The notes: generated by a model from the sequence alone, not told the origin. A DNA stretch of 64,000 nt from Patescibacteria group bacterium (GCA_041737595.1 JBGSRK010000010.1:32001-96000); one strand, 5' to 3'; positions 46,281 to 52,942 are shown, counted from the stretch's first letter. Made by a program: numbers and translations.

Positions 46281-46364
46281 AATGATTATTCTACTCCATT
46301 AATTATTATTTTCATAATAGATTTATAATATATTTTTCTATTAATTCTATGGCTTATTTTGAAC

Positions 46365-46440
46365 TGGTGGGCCCGGTGCGGCTCGAACGCACGACCAATT
46401 GCTTAAGAGGCAACTGCTCTACCAGCTGAGCTACGGGCCC
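46365..46440 (-). tRNA. tRNA-Lys(CTT)
   Basis: GGGCCCGTAGCTCAG...TTGC-CTCTTAA-GCAA...GGGCCCACCA. Confidence 0.95.
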
Positions 46441-46586
46441 ACGTCGGAATTCGCTGACGGATTCCGACGTGGGCCAAACCAAGTCTTCATCCTTTCGCAA
46501 ATCCTCCTCTTTCGGCAAAAATCAATAGATTTTGTCGATTTAAAATGAAAATCTGTTGGTTTTCATTTTTGAGGAAGAATAACGAG
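46441..46586 (-). ncRNA. Conserved structured tRNA-leader element, copy A
   Basis: Collinear similarity to 49995..50124; several hairpins. Confidence 0.6.
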
Positions 46587-46635
46587 AAACCGAAAAAAAT
46601 ATATAATTTTGAAGGTTGTCAGTTTATTCTGATGA

Positions 46636-46711
46636 TGGTGCGCCCGGTAGGATTCGAACCTACGACCAATAGCTTAGAAGGCTACTGCTCTATCCCCTGA
46701 GCTACGGGCGC
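46636..46711 (-). tRNA. tRNA-Arg(TCT)
   Basis: GCGCCCGTAGCTCAG...TAGC-CTTCTAA-GCTA...GGGCGCACCA. Confidence 0.95.
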
Positions 46712-46900
46712 ACGTCAGCGAAAGCTGACGTGCTTCAAAATAATTTATATTATTTATTCCGCACTTACGCTACGCTTCCTTTGCAATTTAAATCAACAGA
46801 TTTAAATTGTCTTTTTAACTTCGATATTATAACGTATTTCAAGAAAATATTCCATTGTTTAAACTAGTTTGATACAATATAATATGTAAAAGAGGGGAAA

Positions 46901-47575
46901 ATGGACTCAACAATAAAACCACAAAATGAATTTTATACACCTGAAACAGGAATAGTTCCTGGCGCTGAATCTCAGGTCGCTCAGGCTGGACAAGATATTA
47001 GTGCAGAAAATCCATTCCCAAATATCCAACCTTCTGAAATTCTCACAAATACAATGGCTTCAGAGGTTACTCAACCACAGTCAGAATTACCAGTTGAGTC
47101 TGATGATGAATTGGCAAAAGAAATTAACGCTGGGCCAGATTTAAAAGTTGTACCAGACCCTGCAGAAATTTCTATTGATTCTACTTATACTAATGATGTC
47201 CCCGAAGCTACCCCAACAGTGATTGAACCAGCACCAATTGAAACTGTTCAACCCGAAATTGTAGCCGAAACACCTGAAGTAATAGAAGAAGTAAAGGAAG
47301 ATCCAGAAGCAATATTATCAGAAATTGACGAAGACTTTGAAGCTATAGATGGGAAAATTGCAGAATATCTAAGTGCAAACCGAGAAAAAATAACCTCTTT
47401 AGAAGATTCTATTAAAGAGGCCGAAGATAGACTTGAGAATACAAGACTTGCAACAGAACAAAGTATTAAAGATAAAAAAGCTGAAATTGTTGAACTTAAA
47501 AAAATGCGAGACAGAATAAGTGCTTATAAAGAGAGAACTAAAATAAATAAAAATCCTACTGAAATCGCAGCATAA
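46901..47575 (+). CDS. Acidic disordered protein with C-terminal coiled coil
   Basis: 224-aa ORF, GAGGGG SD. Confidence 0.75.
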   Translation: MDSTIKPQNEFYTPETGIVPGAESQVAQAGQDISAENPFPNIQPSEILTNTMASEVTQPQSELPVESDDELAKEINAGPDLKVVPDPAEISIDSTYTNDVPEATPTVIEPAPIETVQPEIVAETPEVIEEVKEDPEAILSEIDEDFEAIDGKIAEYLSANREKITSLEDSIKEAEDRLENTRLATEQSIKDKKAEIVELKKMRDRISAYKERTKINKNPTEIAA

Positions 47576-47589
47576 AATACCCGTGTTTA

Positions 47590-48306
47590 TTATTTTATAA
47601 CGAACCCGATATACCTTGCAGATATATTTTTAGGTAATAAATCTAGTATTTTACCAAAAAAATTTATTACATTTTCTAATATAGAATAGTATCTGCCTTT
47701 TTTGGTTACAAATCTAAAATAAAAATGTCCAACATAATCTGCTTTCGTTAAATTATGGTCAGTTGTCCTGATATATCTTTTTATTTTATTTAGAGACATA
47801 GCATCAGATATATGATTTTCAAGAACCTTAGGTTCTAATATTTTATAAAGAAAATGGTAAAGTGGAGAATTTAGATTTGGAACTTCTATTAAGCATATTC
47901 CATTTTTACCCATTAAATTTAAGTGTTTATCAATTATTTTTGTCCAATTATTAAAATGTTCAATAAATCCAAAAGAACATACTAAATCATATTTTCTAAA
48001 AGATCTGTAATTAAGAAAGTCATTTTTTTGGAATACCCCACATTTATAGTTTTTAGACTTAAACCACTCTTCCATAACATTAATATTTTCGTTCCAATCT
48101 ACACCGTTTATTTCATAGCCCATTTTGCCTATTAAAGCTAGAAATTTTCCTGGATAACAACCTATTTCAAGACATTTTAGATTATCCCCTGTTGGAGTAT
48201 TATTATTTATCCATAAAGCAACAGGATGAGTAGTTATAGTAGCCTCTTTATATATAACTTTTCCCCAATGTTCTTCCCAATAATTAATATCTGTTATTGA
48301 CCCCAT
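47590..48306 (-). CDS. Class I SAM-dependent methyltransferase
   Basis: LEIGCYPG, SFGFIEHF, EVPN. Confidence 0.85.
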   Translation of the reverse strand: MGSITDINYWEEHWGKVIYKEATITTHPVALWINNNTPTGDNLKCLEIGCYPGKFLALIGKMGYEINGVDWNENINVMEEWFKSKNYKCGVFQKNDFLNYRSFRKYDLVCSFGFIEHFNNWTKIIDKHLNLMGKNGICLIEVPNLNSPLYHFLYKILEPKVLENHISDAMSLNKIKRYIRTTDHNLTKADYVGHFYFRFVTKKGRYYSILENVINFFGKILDLLPKNISARYIGFVIK

Positions 48307-48312
48307 AAATTG

Positions 48313-48392
48313 ATTTTAACACAAAAAAGAAACTGTTTAAGGTTTCTTTTTTATAATAATTACTGGGGTCGGATAGTGAGAGATATCAGAAC
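48313..48392. repeat. Cassette boundary 1 (promoter + terminator + tRNA-His-end-like att site)
   Basis: ATTTTAACACAAAAA, hairpin, TGGGGTCGGATAGTGAGAGATATCAGAAC. Confidence 0.85.
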
Positions 48393-48406
48393 CGAGATTT
48401 TTAGAA

Positions 48407-48745
48407 CTATTTAACACACGCTAATATAATAAAAGCAAAAACTGCTAAAGTTATACCAAAATATCCTATTGGCGACAAAACTTCTTTCAAAAATAAAAAA
48501 CTTAATAAATTAACAAGAATAATAGAAAAAGCACCAAACATTGCCATTGTTTTTCCAACTGGCATTGTGGTGAAAACATATAATTGTCCAAATGTTGCTA
48601 CGGTTCTCATTAATGTATATCCCAGAAACCACCAGGTAAGAAATGTTGAAATAGTAAAACCATTTCTTTGCATACCACTTTTTGCTAAGATGTCCCCTGA
48701 GGTAAAAAGAATCTGAGATATTGCTAAAACTATTAACGGATTCAT
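48407..48745 (-). CDS. Small 4-TM DMT/EamA-like membrane protein
   Basis: GDILAK...FLFLKEVLSPIGYFGITL. Confidence 0.75.
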   Translation of the reverse strand: MNPLIVLAISQILFTSGDILAKSGMQRNGFTISTFLTWWFLGYTLMRTVATFGQLYVFTTMPVGKTMAMFGAFSIILVNLLSFLFLKEVLSPIGYFGITLAVFAFIILACVK

Positions 48746-48751
48746 AAAATA

Positions 48752-48831
48752 ATTTTAACACAAAAAGGAACCTAAATCGGTCCCTTTTTGTAATATTTAA
48801 AATGGGGTCGGATAGTGCGAGAAGTCAGAAC
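48752..48831. repeat. Cassette boundary 2
   Basis: ATTTTAACACAAAAA, hairpin, TGGGGTCGGATAGTGCGAGAAGTCAGAAC; same 51-nt internal spacing as boundary 1. Confidence 0.85.
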
Positions 48832-48870
48832 TAAAATAGTACAAAATGCTATTAATTTTGCAAAATTGGT

Positions 48871-49578
48871 TTGATGGTGCTAAAATTAAATATGGATAGA
48901 GACGTCAAACAGATTGAGTCGATTTACGGAAGCAACACCTTCCTGAGCGAACAAAAAGAAAATAAAGAAGTGAAGCACCTAAGAAGGGTGTTTTTTTCGT
49001 TAACAAAGGATTTGCACGGCAAAAGAATATTATTCATTGGTTGTGGTGATGGCGAAGAATCCATCCAATACAGCAAATGTGGTGCAACAGCATATGGTGT
49101 TGATATTAGTCCCTTATTAATCGCGGAAGCGAAAAAAAACAATCCTTTGGGTAAATTTATGGCAGGAGATTTTCGGAATATTGCTATAAAGAACTCTTTT
49201 GATATTGTTGTATCTATTTTGTCACTGCATTACTCAAAAGATTTAAATAACTCGTTTTCAAAAATATACACACTTCTTAAGCCTGGTGGGATTTGCTTGA
49301 TAGCGACCACTCACCCAACCCATAAAATGGTTACATACAACAACGGGAATTATTTTCGAAAAGGTAAGGTTTGGTATGAATGGAAGGGGTTAAAAAGATT
49401 TAATTATTTCTATCTTATAGAAGATTATATAAACGGTTTTGCAAAAAGTAATTTTCAGATAAAAGAAATGCTTGAAGTTTTTACCCCAGTTAAATTCCGT
49501 TCAGTAGAAAATAAAAATAATGAAAACCCTATCTTTACTATATATAAGATTAAAAAACCATTAAATCAAATAGATTAA
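48871..49578 (+). CDS. Class I SAM-dependent methyltransferase (start uncertain)
   Basis: ILFIGCGDG, GVDIS, LLKPGG, THP. Confidence 0.82.
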   Translation: MMVLKLNMDRDVKQIESIYGSNTFLSEQKENKEVKHLRRVFFSLTKDLHGKRILFIGCGDGEESIQYSKCGATAYGVDISPLLIAEAKKNNPLGKFMAGDFRNIAIKNSFDIVVSILSLHYSKDLNNSFSKIYTLLKPGGICLIATTHPTHKMVTYNNGNYFRKGKVWYEWKGLKRFNYFYLIEDYINGFAKSNFQIKEMLEVFTPVKFRSVENKNNENPIFTIYKIKKPLNQID

Positions 49579-49659
49579 TTCTGATAAGGCATCTTCTAGG
49601 GTAAATATTAGAACTAAAAAAGAAGTCCTTTTGAACTTCCTTTTTAATCTTTTCAAAAC

Positions 49660-49737
49660 TGGGGTGGCTGATGGGATTCGAACCCACGACCCTCGGCACC
49701 ACAAGCCGATGCTCTAACCAACTGAGCTACAACCACC
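49660..49737 (-). tRNA. tRNA-His(GTG), G-1 encoded
   Basis: G-GTGGTTGTAGCTCAG...TCGG-CTTGTGGT-GCCGA...CAGCCACCCCA. Confidence 0.95.
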
Positions 49738-49741
49738 ACGT

Positions 49742-49818
49742 TGGTGCGCCCTGAGGGATTCGAACCCCCGGCCTTCTGGTCCGAAGCCAGACGCTCTATC
49801 CAGCTGAGCTAAGGGCGC
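49742..49818 (-). tRNA. tRNA-Arg(TCG)
   Basis: GCGCCCTTAGCTCAG...CTGG-CTTCGGA-CCAG...GGGCGCACCA. Confidence 0.95.
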
Positions 49819-49841
49819 ACATTTTTTAGTTTCTTATATAT

Positions 49842-49916
49842 TGGAGCGGGTAAGGAGAGTCGAACTCCTGTCTTCAGCTTGGAAGGCTGACATAATAGCC
49901 ACTATACGATACCCGC
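49842..49916 (-). tRNA. tRNA-Gly(TCC)
   Basis: GCGGGTATCGTATAG...TCAGC-CTTCCAA-GCTGA...ACCCGCTCCA. Confidence 0.95.
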
Positions 49917-49918
49917 AT

Positions 49919-49994
49919 TGGTCGGGGAGACAGGACTCGAACCTGCGACCTCATGGTCCCAAACCACGCGCGCTACCAGCTGCGCCACTCCCCG
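49919..49994 (-). tRNA. tRNA-Pro(TGG)
   Basis: CGGGGAGTGGCGCAG...CGTGG-TTTGGGA-CCATG...CCCCGACCA. Confidence 0.95.
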
Positions 49995-50124
49995 TCATCG
50001 TCGAAATCTGCTTATGAGTTTTGACATGGCCATCCAAGTCTTAACCCAACTGCAGTTTCTCCTCTTAGAACAAAATCAACAGATTTTGTTCTTTTGAAGC
50101 AAATTACAAACAAGTTATAACGAG
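49995..50124 (-). ncRNA. Conserved structured tRNA-leader element, copy B
   Basis: Similar to 46441..46586; begins just after TTGATA-17 bp-TATAAT. Confidence 0.6.
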
Positions 50125-50164
50125 GATAATTATAACCGATTTATAGCTATTTATCAATAAATTT

Positions 50165-50190: not shown

Positions 50191-50463
50191 TTATCTAACT
50201 TCTTCTTTTAAACCTTTACCAGCACGGAAACGAGGAAGTTTCATACTTGGTATAGTGATTTCTTTCCCAGTTTGAGGATCACGTCCTCTGCGTTTAGCAA
50301 TTTGCCCAAGATAAAATGTTCCAAATGAAGTAATAGAAACTTTTTCGCCTTTTTTTATTTTTTCAGTTATTGATTCAACCATGCTATTCATTATTTTTTC
50401 AATTTCTCTTTTTGAATGGCCGGTCTTTGTTGCAAGTTCTGATACTAATTCTCTTTTTGTCAT
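50191..50463 (-). CDS. hup: DNA-binding protein HU
   Basis: MTKRELV, FGTF, RRGRDPQTG, PRFRAGKGLKE. Confidence 0.93.
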   Translation of the reverse strand: MTKRELVSELATKTGHSKREIEKIMNSMVESITEKIKKGEKVSITSFGTFYLGQIAKRRGRDPQTGKEITIPSMKLPRFRAGKGLKEEVR

Positions 50464-50531: not shown

Positions 50532-51320
50532 TTATTTATCAATCCTTTTAATTTTTATTGGTTTAAATTCTTTATCAAATGAAATTAAAACTGAATTAAA
50601 AACACCTTTTCCATCGGCTACTTCAAATTTACCACCTGTACCCTTTATAAATCGTTCAAGTATAATTTCGCTTTTAACTCCAAGCACAGAATTTTTTGGA
50701 CCTGTCATTCCAACATCTGAAATATAAATGGTACCATTTTTTAGAATCTTTGCATCTGCTGTTGGAACATGTGTGTGAGTACCAATTACTGCTGATATCT
50801 TACCATCTGCATGAAACCCCATTGCAACTTTTTCTGATGTCATTTCTGCATGAAAATCTAGAATTGAAATATCATAATCTTTTTTGCTAGCAAGGATTTC
50901 ATCAAGTTTTTTAAATGGGTTAGAAGTTTTTTCATTTATTCCTTCTTTACCAAGAAGATTTATTATTAACAACCTGCCGAAAGAAGTTGTAAGAACACGA
51001 TAACCGTGACCTGGATATTTAGAGGTAAAGTTTGCTGGTCTTAAAACAGGCATTCCTTTTTTTGCGATATCTGTAATAAATGATTTTTCTCTCCAAACAT
51101 GATTACCTGTAGTAAAAAAATCTATTCCCACTTCGTGCATTTCAAGTAAAATATCGCGGTTAACACCTACTCTTTCAGAAAGATGTTCACCATTAGCAAT
51201 AACATAATCAATCTTATATTTTTCTCTTATTATCGGTAAATATTTTTTTACAGTATCTCGACCAGCTTTACCTATAATATCTCCGATAAATAATATGTTT
51301 ATTTCTTTTTTTGAGGTCAT
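50532..51320 (-). CDS. ymdB: YmdB-family metallophosphoesterase
   Basis: FIGDIIG, TGNH, DFHAE.TSEK, GTHTHVPTAD, DVGMTG. Confidence 0.93.
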   Translation of the reverse strand: MTSKKEINILFIGDIIGKAGRDTVKKYLPIIREKYKIDYVIANGEHLSERVGVNRDILLEMHEVGIDFFTTGNHVWREKSFITDIAKKGMPVLRPANFTSKYPGHGYRVLTTSFGRLLIINLLGKEGINEKTSNPFKKLDEILASKKDYDISILDFHAEMTSEKVAMGFHADGKISAVIGTHTHVPTADAKILKNGTIYISDVGMTGPKNSVLGVKSEIILERFIKGTGGKFEVADGKGVFNSVLISFDKEFKPIKIKRIDK

Positions 51321-51371: not shown

Positions 51372-52895
51372 TTATTTTGCGTATTCTACTGCCCTCGTCT
51401 CACGAATAACATTTACTTTAATTTGACCTGGATATTTAAGATCAGACTCAATTTTTCGGGCTACTTCTTTGGCTAATTTTTCAGCACCAAGATCGTCTAT
51501 TGCTTTAGGAGTAACCATCACACGAACTTCGCGGCCAGCTTGAATTGCAAAGGCTTTTTCAACCCCTTCAAAAGAAGTAGCTATGCCTTCTAGCTCAGTT
51601 AAGCGCTTAATATAATTATCCATTGAGTCTCTTCTTACCCCTGGGCGAGATGCAGAAATTGCATCAGCTGAAAGAATAATAATAGCTTCAACGGTTTTTG
51701 GTTCAACATCTTCATGATGAGCTTCAACTGCATGTTGTATTTCTTCAGAGATTCCATATTTTTTACAAATATCTCGAGAAATAATAGCATGAGAGCCAGT
51801 CATTTCTTGATCAATTGCTTTACCTATATCATGCAGGAGACCAGCTTTTTTCGCAATTGCAACATCTGCACCCATCTCAGCAGCCATTGTACCTGCAAGG
51901 TGTGCTGTTTCGATTGAGTGATCTAATACATTTTGAGAAAATGAGGTTCTAAATTTTAAACGGCCAATAACTTTTAAAAGTTCAACTGGAAGCCCAGCAA
52001 CACCAGTTTCATAGGCTGCTCTTTCTCCGGCTTCTTTAACAATTTTATCAATATCAGCTTGTGCTTTTTCAACAGCTTCTTCAATTTTTGAAGGATGAAT
52101 GCGACCGTCTGCTATTAAACGTTCTAGAGTTAGCTTAGCAACTTGTCGACGAACAGGGTCAAAACCTGAGATAACAATAGTTTCTGGAGTATCATCAACA
52201 ATAATATCGCAACCAGTTAATTTTTCGATTGCTTGGATATTTCTTCCTTCTCGGCCAATTATTCTTCCTTTCATTTCATCGCTTGGTAGGGTAATTGCAG
52301 TAACTGTGGATTCGGCGGTTTGATCTGAAGAAAGTCTTTGAATAGCAGTTGCAATTATTTCTCTTGCCTCTTTGTCTGCATCTTCTTTGGCGTCATCTTT
52401 TACTTTTCTAATTCTTTCAACAATATCTTTCTTATAATCTTTTTCTACCATTTCAAGTAATTTTTTTTGAGCATCGTCTTTTGAAAGTTTAGAAATCTTT
52501 TCTAAATTTTTTTCTTGTTTTTCTCGTAGGTCACGAAGATAATTTTTGTTTTCATCTATCTCTGCTTTATCTTTTTCTATTGCATCTCTTTTTGTGTCAA
52601 TATCTGTTAATTTTTTATCAATTGATTCTTCTTTGATCGCAAGTCTTTTTTCCAGGTCTAATAGGTCTGATCTTCTTTCCTTTTCTTCTTTTTTTGCAAT
52701 GTCAGTAATTTTTGAGGCTTCTTCTTTTGCATTAAGAATTGTTTCCTTTGCTTCGGACTTTGCGCTATCAATTACTTTTTGGGCCTGGGCTTCAGCATTT
52801 GAGGTTTGTGTTTTTGCTTTTACGTTGCGCGCCACCCAACCAGAAACACCCCCAGCCGTAAGCCCGACTACAAGCCAAACTAATATCGGTGTCAT
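51372..52895 (-). CDS. rny: Ribonuclease Y
   Basis: N-terminal TM, coiled coil, KGRIIGREGRNI (KH), LLHDIGK (HD); ATG at 52895 after AAGGAG. Confidence 0.96.
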   Translation of the reverse strand: MTPILVWLVVGLTAGGVSGWVARNVKAKTQTSNAEAQAQKVIDSAKSEAKETILNAKEEASKITDIAKKEEKERRSDLLDLEKRLAIKEESIDKKLTDIDTKRDAIEKDKAEIDENKNYLRDLREKQEKNLEKISKLSKDDAQKKLLEMVEKDYKKDIVERIRKVKDDAKEDADKEAREIIATAIQRLSSDQTAESTVTAITLPSDEMKGRIIGREGRNIQAIEKLTGCDIIVDDTPETIVISGFDPVRRQVAKLTLERLIADGRIHPSKIEEAVEKAQADIDKIVKEAGERAAYETGVAGLPVELLKVIGRLKFRTSFSQNVLDHSIETAHLAGTMAAEMGADVAIAKKAGLLHDIGKAIDQEMTGSHAIISRDICKKYGISEEIQHAVEAHHEDVEPKTVEAIIILSADAISASRPGVRRDSMDNYIKRLTELEGIATSFEGVEKAFAIQAGREVRVMVTPKAIDDLGAEKLAKEVARKIESDLKYPGQIKVNVIRETRAVEYAK

Positions 52896-52942
52896 TTTCT
52901 CTCCTTTTCTCAACACTTAAAAGGCGGTTGAGTATAAGCCGC

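Follow-up and report, generated by a model that had tools for sequence, protein, structure and literature searches.

A structured repeat family bordering tRNA and tmRNA genes in a Patescibacteria class

A repeat family at tRNA and tmRNA gene ends

We analyzed a stretch of 64,000 nucleotides from a Patescibacteria group bacterium (GCA_041737595.1, JBGSRK010000010.1:32001-96000; hereafter the window, with positions counted from its first letter) and found that it carries four copies, one of them inverted, of a repeat element of about 100 nt (range, about 95–107 nt), which we named E. The E family is real, strongly structured, previously uncatalogued and tied to the boundaries of genes for tRNA and transfer-messenger RNA (tmRNA). 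The initial annotation of the window had recognized that the leaders of tRNA-Lys (46441-46586, minus strand) and tRNA-Pro (49995-50124) are collinear, with an AAAATCT(A/G)TTGATTTT hairpin and the blocks AAGAGGAG and AAGACTTGG in common, and that the leader of tRNA-Arg(TCT) shares blocks with them. Both observations were borne out. The Lys and Pro leaders align collinearly down to the tail before the tRNA, and in searches with a covariance model trained on 14 own-genome copies the tRNA-Arg(TCT) leader proved to be a complete third copy of E, scoring 92.0 bits. The Lys, Arg and Pro copies scored 84–92 bits (E-values of about 1e-14 to 1e-15), and the likeness of the three leaders is far beyond chance.

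The forward copy before tRNA-Lys(CTT) (46441..46542, minus strand; 89.9 bits) ends with GACGT directly at position 1 of the tRNA. Head-to-head with it lies the inverted copy (46539..46635, plus strand; 73.8 bits), whose GAUGA tail stands at the CCA 3' end of tRNA-Arg(TCT). A forward copy of type B (46712..46813, minus strand) again ends with GACGT at position 1 of tRNA-Arg(TCT), with E on both flanks of this gene, and the fourth copy, also forward (49998..50096, minus strand; 83.9 bits), lies 3 nt (49995-49997) from position 1 of tRNA-Pro(TGG). The block CTCGTTAT, listed in the initial annotation as common to the leaders, did not hold up as such: in the Lys leader it belongs to the inverted fourth copy, as its reverse complement, and in the Pro leader the 8-mer follows directly after a -10 box and its homology is unsupported.

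The genome from which the window derives comprises 1.09 Mb in 143 contigs with a G+C content of 38.5%. The covariance model gave 19 matches of at least 61 bits in it, followed by a next best match of 28 bits, and all 19 strong matches were located at the ends of tRNA, tmRNA or pseudo-tRNA genes; five of the 19 copies are on the opposite strand, with the tail directly after the tRNA CCA. The hairpin core AAATCTGTYGATTT has ten exact occurrences in the genome, every one beside a tRNA, and in the forward orientation the core precedes 13 tRNAs and the tmRNA, 73–81 nt from their mature 5' ends. From this genome and 16 relatives, a total of 122 copies were gathered. Placement by ARAGORN assigned 57 of them to 5' ends (gap 0 in 52) and 47 to 3' ends (31 of these at gap -1 and 15 at gap 0) and left 18 unassigned; after by-eye curation of truncated loci, 63/122 were at tRNA or tmRNA 5' ends and 48/122 were inverted at 3' CCA ends, and 111/122 adjoin an intact tRNA or tmRNA. 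The 11 other copies comprise seven at a 9–18 nt remnant of a tRNA 5' end or an uncalled tRNA-like sequence, two stacked partial copies and two ambiguous ones. The tail end of E always faces the tRNA, at position 1 in forward copies and directly after CCA in inverted ones. Head-to-head pairs fill the spacer between two tRNA genes in 17 cases, five tRNAs have E on both sides, and the 5' end of the tmRNA carries a copy in four genomes. A 17-mer scan of metagenome contigs returned 48 loci, ten of which held real copies, the remainder being chance word matches; on contigs with a two-sided flank, every tail-proximal copy adjoins a tRNA end, and one further locus (L148) is cut by the contig end. The contigs of two DNA runs gave tRNA cross-matches only, with no interpretable empty site.

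E was present in 16 of 40 relatives, all belonging to one Patescibacteria class (32 genomes in our collection), and was not detected in the other 24; searches of the order and the class brought up no genome beyond those scanned. By family, it was found in 1/4 (f1), 1/1 (f2), 9/11 (f3), 2/9 (f5), 1/1 (f7) and 2/3 (f8) genomes. No genome among 143 sampled from the other classes of the phylum gave a match at an E-value <= 1e-9 under strict filters, with 26 candidates scored per genome. A full-text literature search, the scope of which left out subscription journals and supplements, returned no description of E, and there is no Rfam 15 family for it: the window scan at the gathering threshold gave seven tRNAs only, and E-value scans of 46300-46900 and of 20 loci with copies gave no recurrent match on E. 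The covariance-model search and the Rfam scan proposed in the initial annotation thus revealed tRNA-linked homologues with covariation in relatives, and no known family matching E.

Should this picture of E be correct, the family would be the first among bacterial repeats known to line up exactly, on either side, with the mature termini of genes for tRNA and tmRNA. It would mean that even Patescibacteria genomes of about 1 Mb tolerate or use structured inserts of 100–200 nt in tRNA operons that are nearly spacer-free in relatives, raising the question of how a minimal set of RNases, with RNase P RNA and RNase Y both encoded, copes with such precursors. The recognition of the boundary would imply a precise, structure-guided targeting activity that is open to search. 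In practical terms, the covariance model flags E regions, so that they are not mistaken for open reading frames (ORFs) or novel small RNAs, and E can serve as a lineage marker given its absence from the 143 genomes sampled outside the class.

Fold and strand polarity of E

E consists, in order, of a P1 hairpin, a AAGAGGAG linker, a long-range helix P2, a 4x4 internal loop (GAAA/GUCA), a helix P3, a variable P4 hairpin and a GACGN tail. The linker is composed of purines, and the tail is a single-stranded stretch of 5 nt. In the Lys copy (all coordinates on the minus strand), the P1 hairpin, as derived from the own-genome alignment, occupies 46538-46512, the linker AAGAGGAGG 46511-46503, the 5' strand of P2 46504-46497 and the loop GAAA 46496-46493; P3 is formed by 46492-46489 with 46462-46459, with P4 enclosed between its strands, and is followed by the loop GUCA (46458-46455), the 3' strand of P2 (46454-46446) and the tail GACGT (46445-46441). 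The long-range P2 of this copy is GGAUUUGC paired with GCGAAUUCC, and its P3 is GGAU with AUCC. P2 sequences vary freely among copies (GGAAUUGC, AGCGUAGC, AGAAUAAC and others): the type B copy in the tRNA-Arg(TCT) leader has AGCGUAGC/GCUUUCGCU, and the inverted copy has AGAAUAAC/GUUUAUUCU, a subtype found at 3' ends only. The top of P1 is conserved and its base covaries in the 14 own-genome copies, and the monomer ends of E are unlike each other in the same alignment.

The consensus fold was derived from the 14 own-genome copies at positions -102 to -1 relative to the tRNA. In this set, 95.0% of cells were paired and 19 of 23 pairs had changed on both sides; none of 500 shuffles was as good, and slid partners were only 30–54% paired. 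In the alignment of all 122 copies, which was fitted to the covariance model, 94.2% of cells were paired and 22 of 23 pairs showed double changes. The statement in the initial annotation that the stems differ in sequence yet still pair is therefore well founded, with strong covariation in both sets. Single-sequence folding, which is independent of the model, gave a probability of 0.86 for P1 and 0.75 for P2/P3, the latter exceeding 0.5 in 103/122 copies. The G-A-C-G columns of the tail are kept in 59–63 of the 63 5' copies and in 40–47 of the 48 3' copies, depending on the column.

The initial annotation had drawn a terminal GTC...GAC hairpin next to tRNA position 1 and had proposed, as one of three readings, a switch controlling tRNA maturation. 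In such a switch, this local hairpin at or inside position 1 would compete with P2 and the acceptor stem and thereby gate RNase P. Such a hairpin can be drawn: ACGUCGGAAU of the Lys copy can pair with AUUCCGACGU, reaching 5 nt into the tRNA, and type B copies can form CGUCAGC/GCUGACG. The mean paired probability of the GACGN tail was, however, 0.23 (above 0.5 in 14/122 copies), and because P2 and P3 dominate folding (103/122 copies) and the tail is mostly unpaired, the terminal hairpin is a minor alternative to the best-supported pairing, the long-range P2 plus P3. Covariation likewise backs P2 and P3, and the alternative stem has no alignable partner columns. The extension into the tRNA stands for the Lys copy and is weak across copies: forward copies gained -4.61 kcal/mol with their own tRNA vs -4.10 kcal/mol with permuted tRNAs, and 7 of 200 permutations were as low, a complementarity that slightly favors the switch but is marginal. 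The mechanism would be impossible for inverted copies, and we consider a maturation switch very unlikely.

The arrangement of copies around tRNA genes brings to mind the processing stalks of rRNA operons, with a leader and a trailer copy pairing into a long stem cut by RNase III. Both the 17 head-to-head pairs and the five doubly flanked tRNAs would offer the necessary partners, and pairing between the conserved linkers, as AGAGGA and its complement, is conceivable. The partners were, however, no more alike than background copies, with identities of 0.30–0.53 in head-to-head pairs and 0.29–0.62 in flanking pairs vs genome means of 0.44–0.57, and each copy must therefore fold on itself. In addition, each copy has its own compensating changes in P2/P3, and most copies are solo. 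The stalk is thus largely refuted, and we give it next to no weight.

The two strands of E are not equivalent. On the strand that reads in the sense of the element, G.U outnumbers A.C by 41 to 24 in inverted copies and by 51 to 28 in forward ones, and this strand is more stable than its reverse complement by -4.4 kcal/mol in inverted copies (43/47 copies) and by -6.2 kcal/mol in forward copies (58/62 copies). The near-invariant unpaired purines are equally conserved in both orientations. Inverted copies thus keep the sense-strand signature, unlike what would be expected from selection on the co-transcribed strand.

Another reading in the initial annotation was a noncoding RNA released by RNase P. 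RNase P RNA is encoded in the genome, and the idea holds in the trivial sense that a 5' copy must be cut off to free its tRNA. In a stronger version, the released 5' copy would act in trans as a small RNA, with RNase P forming only its 3' end. Such a product would be well bounded, by a promoter near its 5' end and by the RNase P site at its 3' end, and would combine a stable fold with conserved unpaired purines. This version is nonetheless quite unlikely, as no such RNA would come from the inverted copies, which make up 48 of the 111 assigned ones, and the variable P2–P4 speak against a single common target. With regard to RNase P itself, two matches to the bacterial type-A RNA were observed in the genome, at C90:1248-1648 (261 bits, on a 2-kb contig) and C36:5609-6028 (220 bits).

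Three further interpretations of parts of E were tried and rejected. Some type A copies have a Shine-Dalgarno-like AAGAGGAGG with an ATG after it; the frames of this possible small ORF are dissimilar and it is absent from type B. On inspection, the motifs GAUGA and CUGA, which might have indicated a C/D box or K-turn, are not found together in any one subtype, and the 4x4 loop is symmetric. P1 is not a -35 element, there being no -10 box at the proper distance.

Spread and possible function of E

Among the three readings of the initial annotation, a tRNA-targeting miniature element fits best. We lean, by a modest degree, towards E being a miniature mobile or copy-and-paste element that inserts specifically at tRNA boundaries, folds in a strand-specific manner and is co-transcribed as leader or spacer. 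In two relatives without E, G001 (same family) and G008, tRNA spacers measure 1–20 nt and contain no GACGN, and -10 boxes stand about 10 nt before tRNA position 1. Between the Arg(TCT) and Lys genes, G001 has a spacer of 1 nt vs 195 nt here, the latter being exactly two E copies. Occupancy of tRNA ends changes quickly between relatives: within one genus, tRNA-Arg(TCT) bears its E copy 5' in G010 and 3' in G020, and the 5' copy at Thr(CGT) is intact in two species and a 29-nt relic in a third. At the Gly(CCC) 3' site, P1 is about 85% conserved and P2–P4 are of different subtypes. The nearest relative of 109 copies was at another site in another genome in 58 cases, in the same genome in 44 and at the corresponding site of another genome in only 7, and the same subtypes are found at different tRNAs in different genomes. 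Finally, stacked forward copies on two metagenome contigs (L146 and L171) are of different subtypes; in these stacks, and likewise at L056 and L049, the tRNA-proximal tail is intact and the distal tails are degenerate or truncated. The short E-free spacers, changing occupancy, site-swapped subtypes and unlike stacked copies together argue for repeated insertion at the tRNA boundary.

Under this scheme, E would insert at tRNA boundaries as a miniature mobile, or at least copy-and-paste, element whose sense strand would have to fold single-stranded, as RNA or DNA, while propagating. New copies would arrive at the boundary and displace older ones outwards, where they would decay. The 5' copies would be transcribed as a leader from a promoter 15–35 nt upstream, paired copies would make up inter-tRNA spacers of 195 nt, and RNase P would have to cut after the single-stranded tail to free the tRNA.

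Several results weigh against mobility. We found no flanking direct repeats or target duplication, the flanks sharing no more than permuted flanks. Neither RVT_1 (PF00078) nor Y1_Tnp (PF01797) had a match in the E-rich genomes G002, G006, G010, G016, G018, G020 and G022, and Y1_Tnp had none in G024 either; RVT_1 is present in the own genome and many genomes without E, and Y1_Tnp matches occur in many genomes without E. A search for Rnl2-type ligase gave no match in any genome of the class. Copies within a genome have a mean identity of about 0.5 with maxima of 0.86–0.92, and to judge from these values they are old, with no recent burst visible. That the fold and unpaired purines are kept at 50% identity also fits selection at each locus. 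The linker has G in one column in 46/63 5' copies and A in 37/48 3' copies, the P2 subtype AGAAUAAC/GUUUAUUCU is restricted to 3' ends, and inverted copies are more alike among themselves (0.574) than forward ones (0.528); these differences hint at side-specific functions or lineages. The reverse complement forms a mirrored fold (0.70–0.74; above 0.5 in 40/48 inverted copies), and a role as structured trailers is therefore conceivable for them. One inverted copy, at L146:442-545 on a metagenome contig, adjoins no tRNA. A DNA-level process that finds the mature boundary on both sides lacks an explanation. The contigs of two DNA runs gave tRNA cross-matches only, with no interpretable empty site.

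The missing enzyme and target duplication, the age of the copies, the side-specific features and the transcription as leader make a serious rival of a host-beneficial, cis-acting pre-tRNA module, which is compatible with mobility. E would then be an autonomously folding leader, spacer or trailer that keeps neighboring tRNAs from misfolding with one another by insulating them, endows the primary transcript with a structured 5' end and provides RNase P with a single-stranded linker of 5 nt; on the 3' side it would mark or limit trimming, and it would have spread by duplication and gene conversion instead of transposition. Consistent with such a module are the promoter-like sites upstream of 5' copies (-10-like boxes occur 14–36 nt upstream of many solo ones), the single-stranded tail beside position 1 and the retention of fold and unpaired purines in copies about 50% alike, as well as the side-specific letters and 3'-only subtype, the mirrored fold of 40/48 inverted copies, the tmRNA leaders with E in four genomes and the GACGN tail that only the tRNA-proximal copy of a stack has kept. 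Moreover, the orthologous P1 with swapped P2–P4 at the Gly(CCC) site suggests conversion between copies. On the other hand, E is dispensable, since sister genera of the same family or order manage with spacers of 1–20 nt and leaders of a few nucleotides and 24/40 relatives have no copy. The occupied ends also differ among species of one genus, inverted copies bear the sense-strand signature, and duplication would hardly yield stacks of unlike subtypes. We regard a module of this kind, the main rival to mobility, as possible but somewhat doubtful.

We also considered a new kind of mobile element, whose insertion would be set by the mature termini of tRNAs through joining at the RNA or cDNA level and not by DNA sequence. 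When RNase P frees a 5' copy, the sense RNA would terminate precisely with ...GACGN. Priming by the CCA 3'-OH of a tRNA on this RNA would give "tRNA-CCA | inverted E", "E | tRNA position 1" would arise if the template were switched from the 5' end of a tRNA to the 3' terminus of the E transcript, and the chimera would be fixed at the tRNA locus through recombination. Such joining would explain the exact register on both sides, the tail facing the tRNA and the tmRNA targets, and equally the missing target duplications, the stacking at the boundary and the sense-strand signature of inverted copies. Against it, neither reverse transcriptase nor Rnl2-type ligase was detected in E-rich genomes, and inverted copies form partly separate lineages; we assign this route a small probability.

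Genomic surroundings and comparison with known systems

The window copies belong to two loci on the minus strand, the Arg(TCT)–Lys(CTT) locus (46365-46711) and the Pro-Gly-Arg-His operon (49660-49994). ARAGORN placed tRNA-Lys(CTT) at 46365..46440 (Rfam tRNA, 69.3 bits), tRNA-Arg(TCT) at 46636..46711 (73.8 bits) and tRNA-Pro(TGG), the first gene of its operon, at 49919..49994, all on the minus strand. The remaining genes of that operon, tRNA-Gly(TCC), Arg(TCG) and His(GTG) (49660-49916, minus strand), are separated by spacers of 2–23 nt, in which the covariance model search gave no E match. A promoter-like TTGATA-17-TATAAT (50129..50157, minus strand), the best site of the consensus scan with 11/12 matches, lies upstream of the Pro copy and would, to go by its sequence, place this copy at the 5' end of the primary transcript. 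For the Arg(TCT)–Lys operon, a possible promoter, TGGAAT-17-TATAAT (46826..46854, minus strand), was picked out by eye upstream of the Arg copy; it is not among the consensus-scan sites, and its first hexamer matches at 3/6 positions only. The window scan found no terminator-like site between E and the tRNA.

Upstream of the Pro operon, the minus strand encodes HU (50191-50463), a YmdB-like phosphoesterase (50532-51320) and RNase Y (51372-52916). The RNase Y is 77–82% identical to proteins from metagenome-assembled genomes labeled "Patescibacteria group" and "Candidatus Saccharibacteria". Adjacency of RNase Y and YmdB is also the arrangement in Bacillus. Elsewhere in the window, a region of about 90 nt with the core GGGGTCGGATAGTG occurs twice, at 48304-48392 and 48743-48831 (439 nt apart), preceding the adjacent minus-strand genes for a methyltransferase (47590-48306) and a small membrane protein (48407-48745). 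The core has two exact matches in the window vs 0.1 expected for matches with <=2 mismatches, and the region may be a shared promoter or 5' untranslated region motif.

Further loci outside the window were observed to carry altered copies or other inserts. Lone P1-type hairpins without P2–P4 are found at C54:32903-32930 and C36:88512-88569 of the own genome (25 and 24 bits), 4 nt before tRNA-Trp and 34 nt before tRNA-Ile(GAT), and are probably deletion derivatives. At L011:263-306 (C67:108582-108625 of the own genome), E adjoins an 18-nt remnant of a tRNA-Thr(CGT)-like 5' end, and a different, intact tRNA-Thr(CGT) lies 45 nt downstream, which suggests replacement of a tRNA gene that left the old leader and a 5' stub behind. 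At two loci of G006 (L055:60-163 and L052:253-360), E is followed by tRNA-like 5' parts (acceptor and D arm) split by GC-rich hairpin inserts; uncalled by ARAGORN, they may represent tRNAs that are disrupted or that carry unusual insertions. In G024 (L027:1360-1500 and L039:1290-1500), another leader type lies between the E copy and the tRNA, with the first 6–9 nt of the tRNA duplicated, a hairpin and a stretch of about 55–65 nt ending in CTCCTA before the intact tRNA; it occurs twice in L039 and looks like a second insert family at tRNA 5' ends. The inverted copy on contig L146 lies 13 nt downstream of a TATAAT and head-to-head with three stacked forward copies before tRNA-Arg(GCG). In the own genome, tRNA-Tyr and tRNA-Thr(GGT) are separated by a GC-rich spacer of about 120 nt (C54:33323-33442, L012), which is unlike either E or the AT-rich genome and may be another structured RNA. 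On the small contigs C30, C118 and C14, the tRNA flanks are GC-rich; bin contamination is given as 3.5%, and the bin probably includes some foreign contigs.

Among known systems, bacterial miniature inverted-repeat transposable elements such as Correia and RPE are non-autonomous, structured, about 100–150 bp long, co-transcribed with their neighbors and variable between strains. E has neither their terminal inverted repeats nor their target duplication, and its target specificity is extreme. In Neurospora mitochondria, GC-rich palindromes flank tRNA genes, and hairpin elements occur in other mitochondrial genomes; a role as processing signals and an origin as mobile DNA have both been discussed for such sequences. 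They resemble E as repeated hairpin-forming sequences on both sides of tRNAs. However, they are organellar, short and GC-rich with no multi-helix architecture, whereas the bacterial, AT-rich E lines up exactly with the mature tRNA ends.

In the integron attC site and the attP(+) site of the CTX phage, a single-strand fold is conserved rather than a sequence, and there are strand-specific features. The succession of P2, unpaired loop, P3 and variable tip in E is formally like that of R, central spacer, L and variable terminal structure in attC. Unlike attC, E has no RYYYAAC/GTTRRRY boxes, occurs in both orientations and lies outside cassette arrays. The RNase III processing stems of rRNA and T7 are irregular, with internal loops, and are located in precursors of stable RNAs; unlike the rRNA-type stalks, the stem of E is formed within one copy and not between leader and trailer. 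A retroelement-derived repeat would lead one to expect RVT_1, which had no match in the seven E-rich genomes, and a riboswitch, T-box or attenuator would call for a downstream terminator-like site, for which we found none, with the tail of E unpaired. The TIGR-Tas arrays (PMC12045711) are short dual-repeat arrays and were set aside as unrelated to E.

E also resembles repetitive extragenic palindromes (REPs; GTAG- or CGTC-tagged) and their REPIN form (Di Nocera et al. 2013, PMC3733652), REPs being single hairpins of 20–40 bp scattered in intergenic DNA; the CGTC-tagged REPs, like E, are reported to have no dedicated transposase. These CGTC-tagged elements and E are alike in being short, structured extragenic repeats with a terminal tetranucleotide, CGTC being the complement of the GACG of E, in frequently forming head-to-head dimers with the tags outside, in showing G.T pairs and compensating stem changes, and in being patchy between species. 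No transposase of the Y1 or RAYT type, as would be expected for REP/REPIN and IS200/IS605-derived elements, tracks E in the genomes searched, and the arms of the 17 head-to-head E pairs are no more alike than background, unlike the pairing arms of the inverted doublets called REPINs. Compared with REPs, E is longer, at about 95–107 nt, and comprises two domains (P1 and P2/P3/P4) with conserved internal loops and a purine linker, and instead of being dispersed genome-wide it is confined to the ends of tRNA and tmRNA genes in a fixed register.

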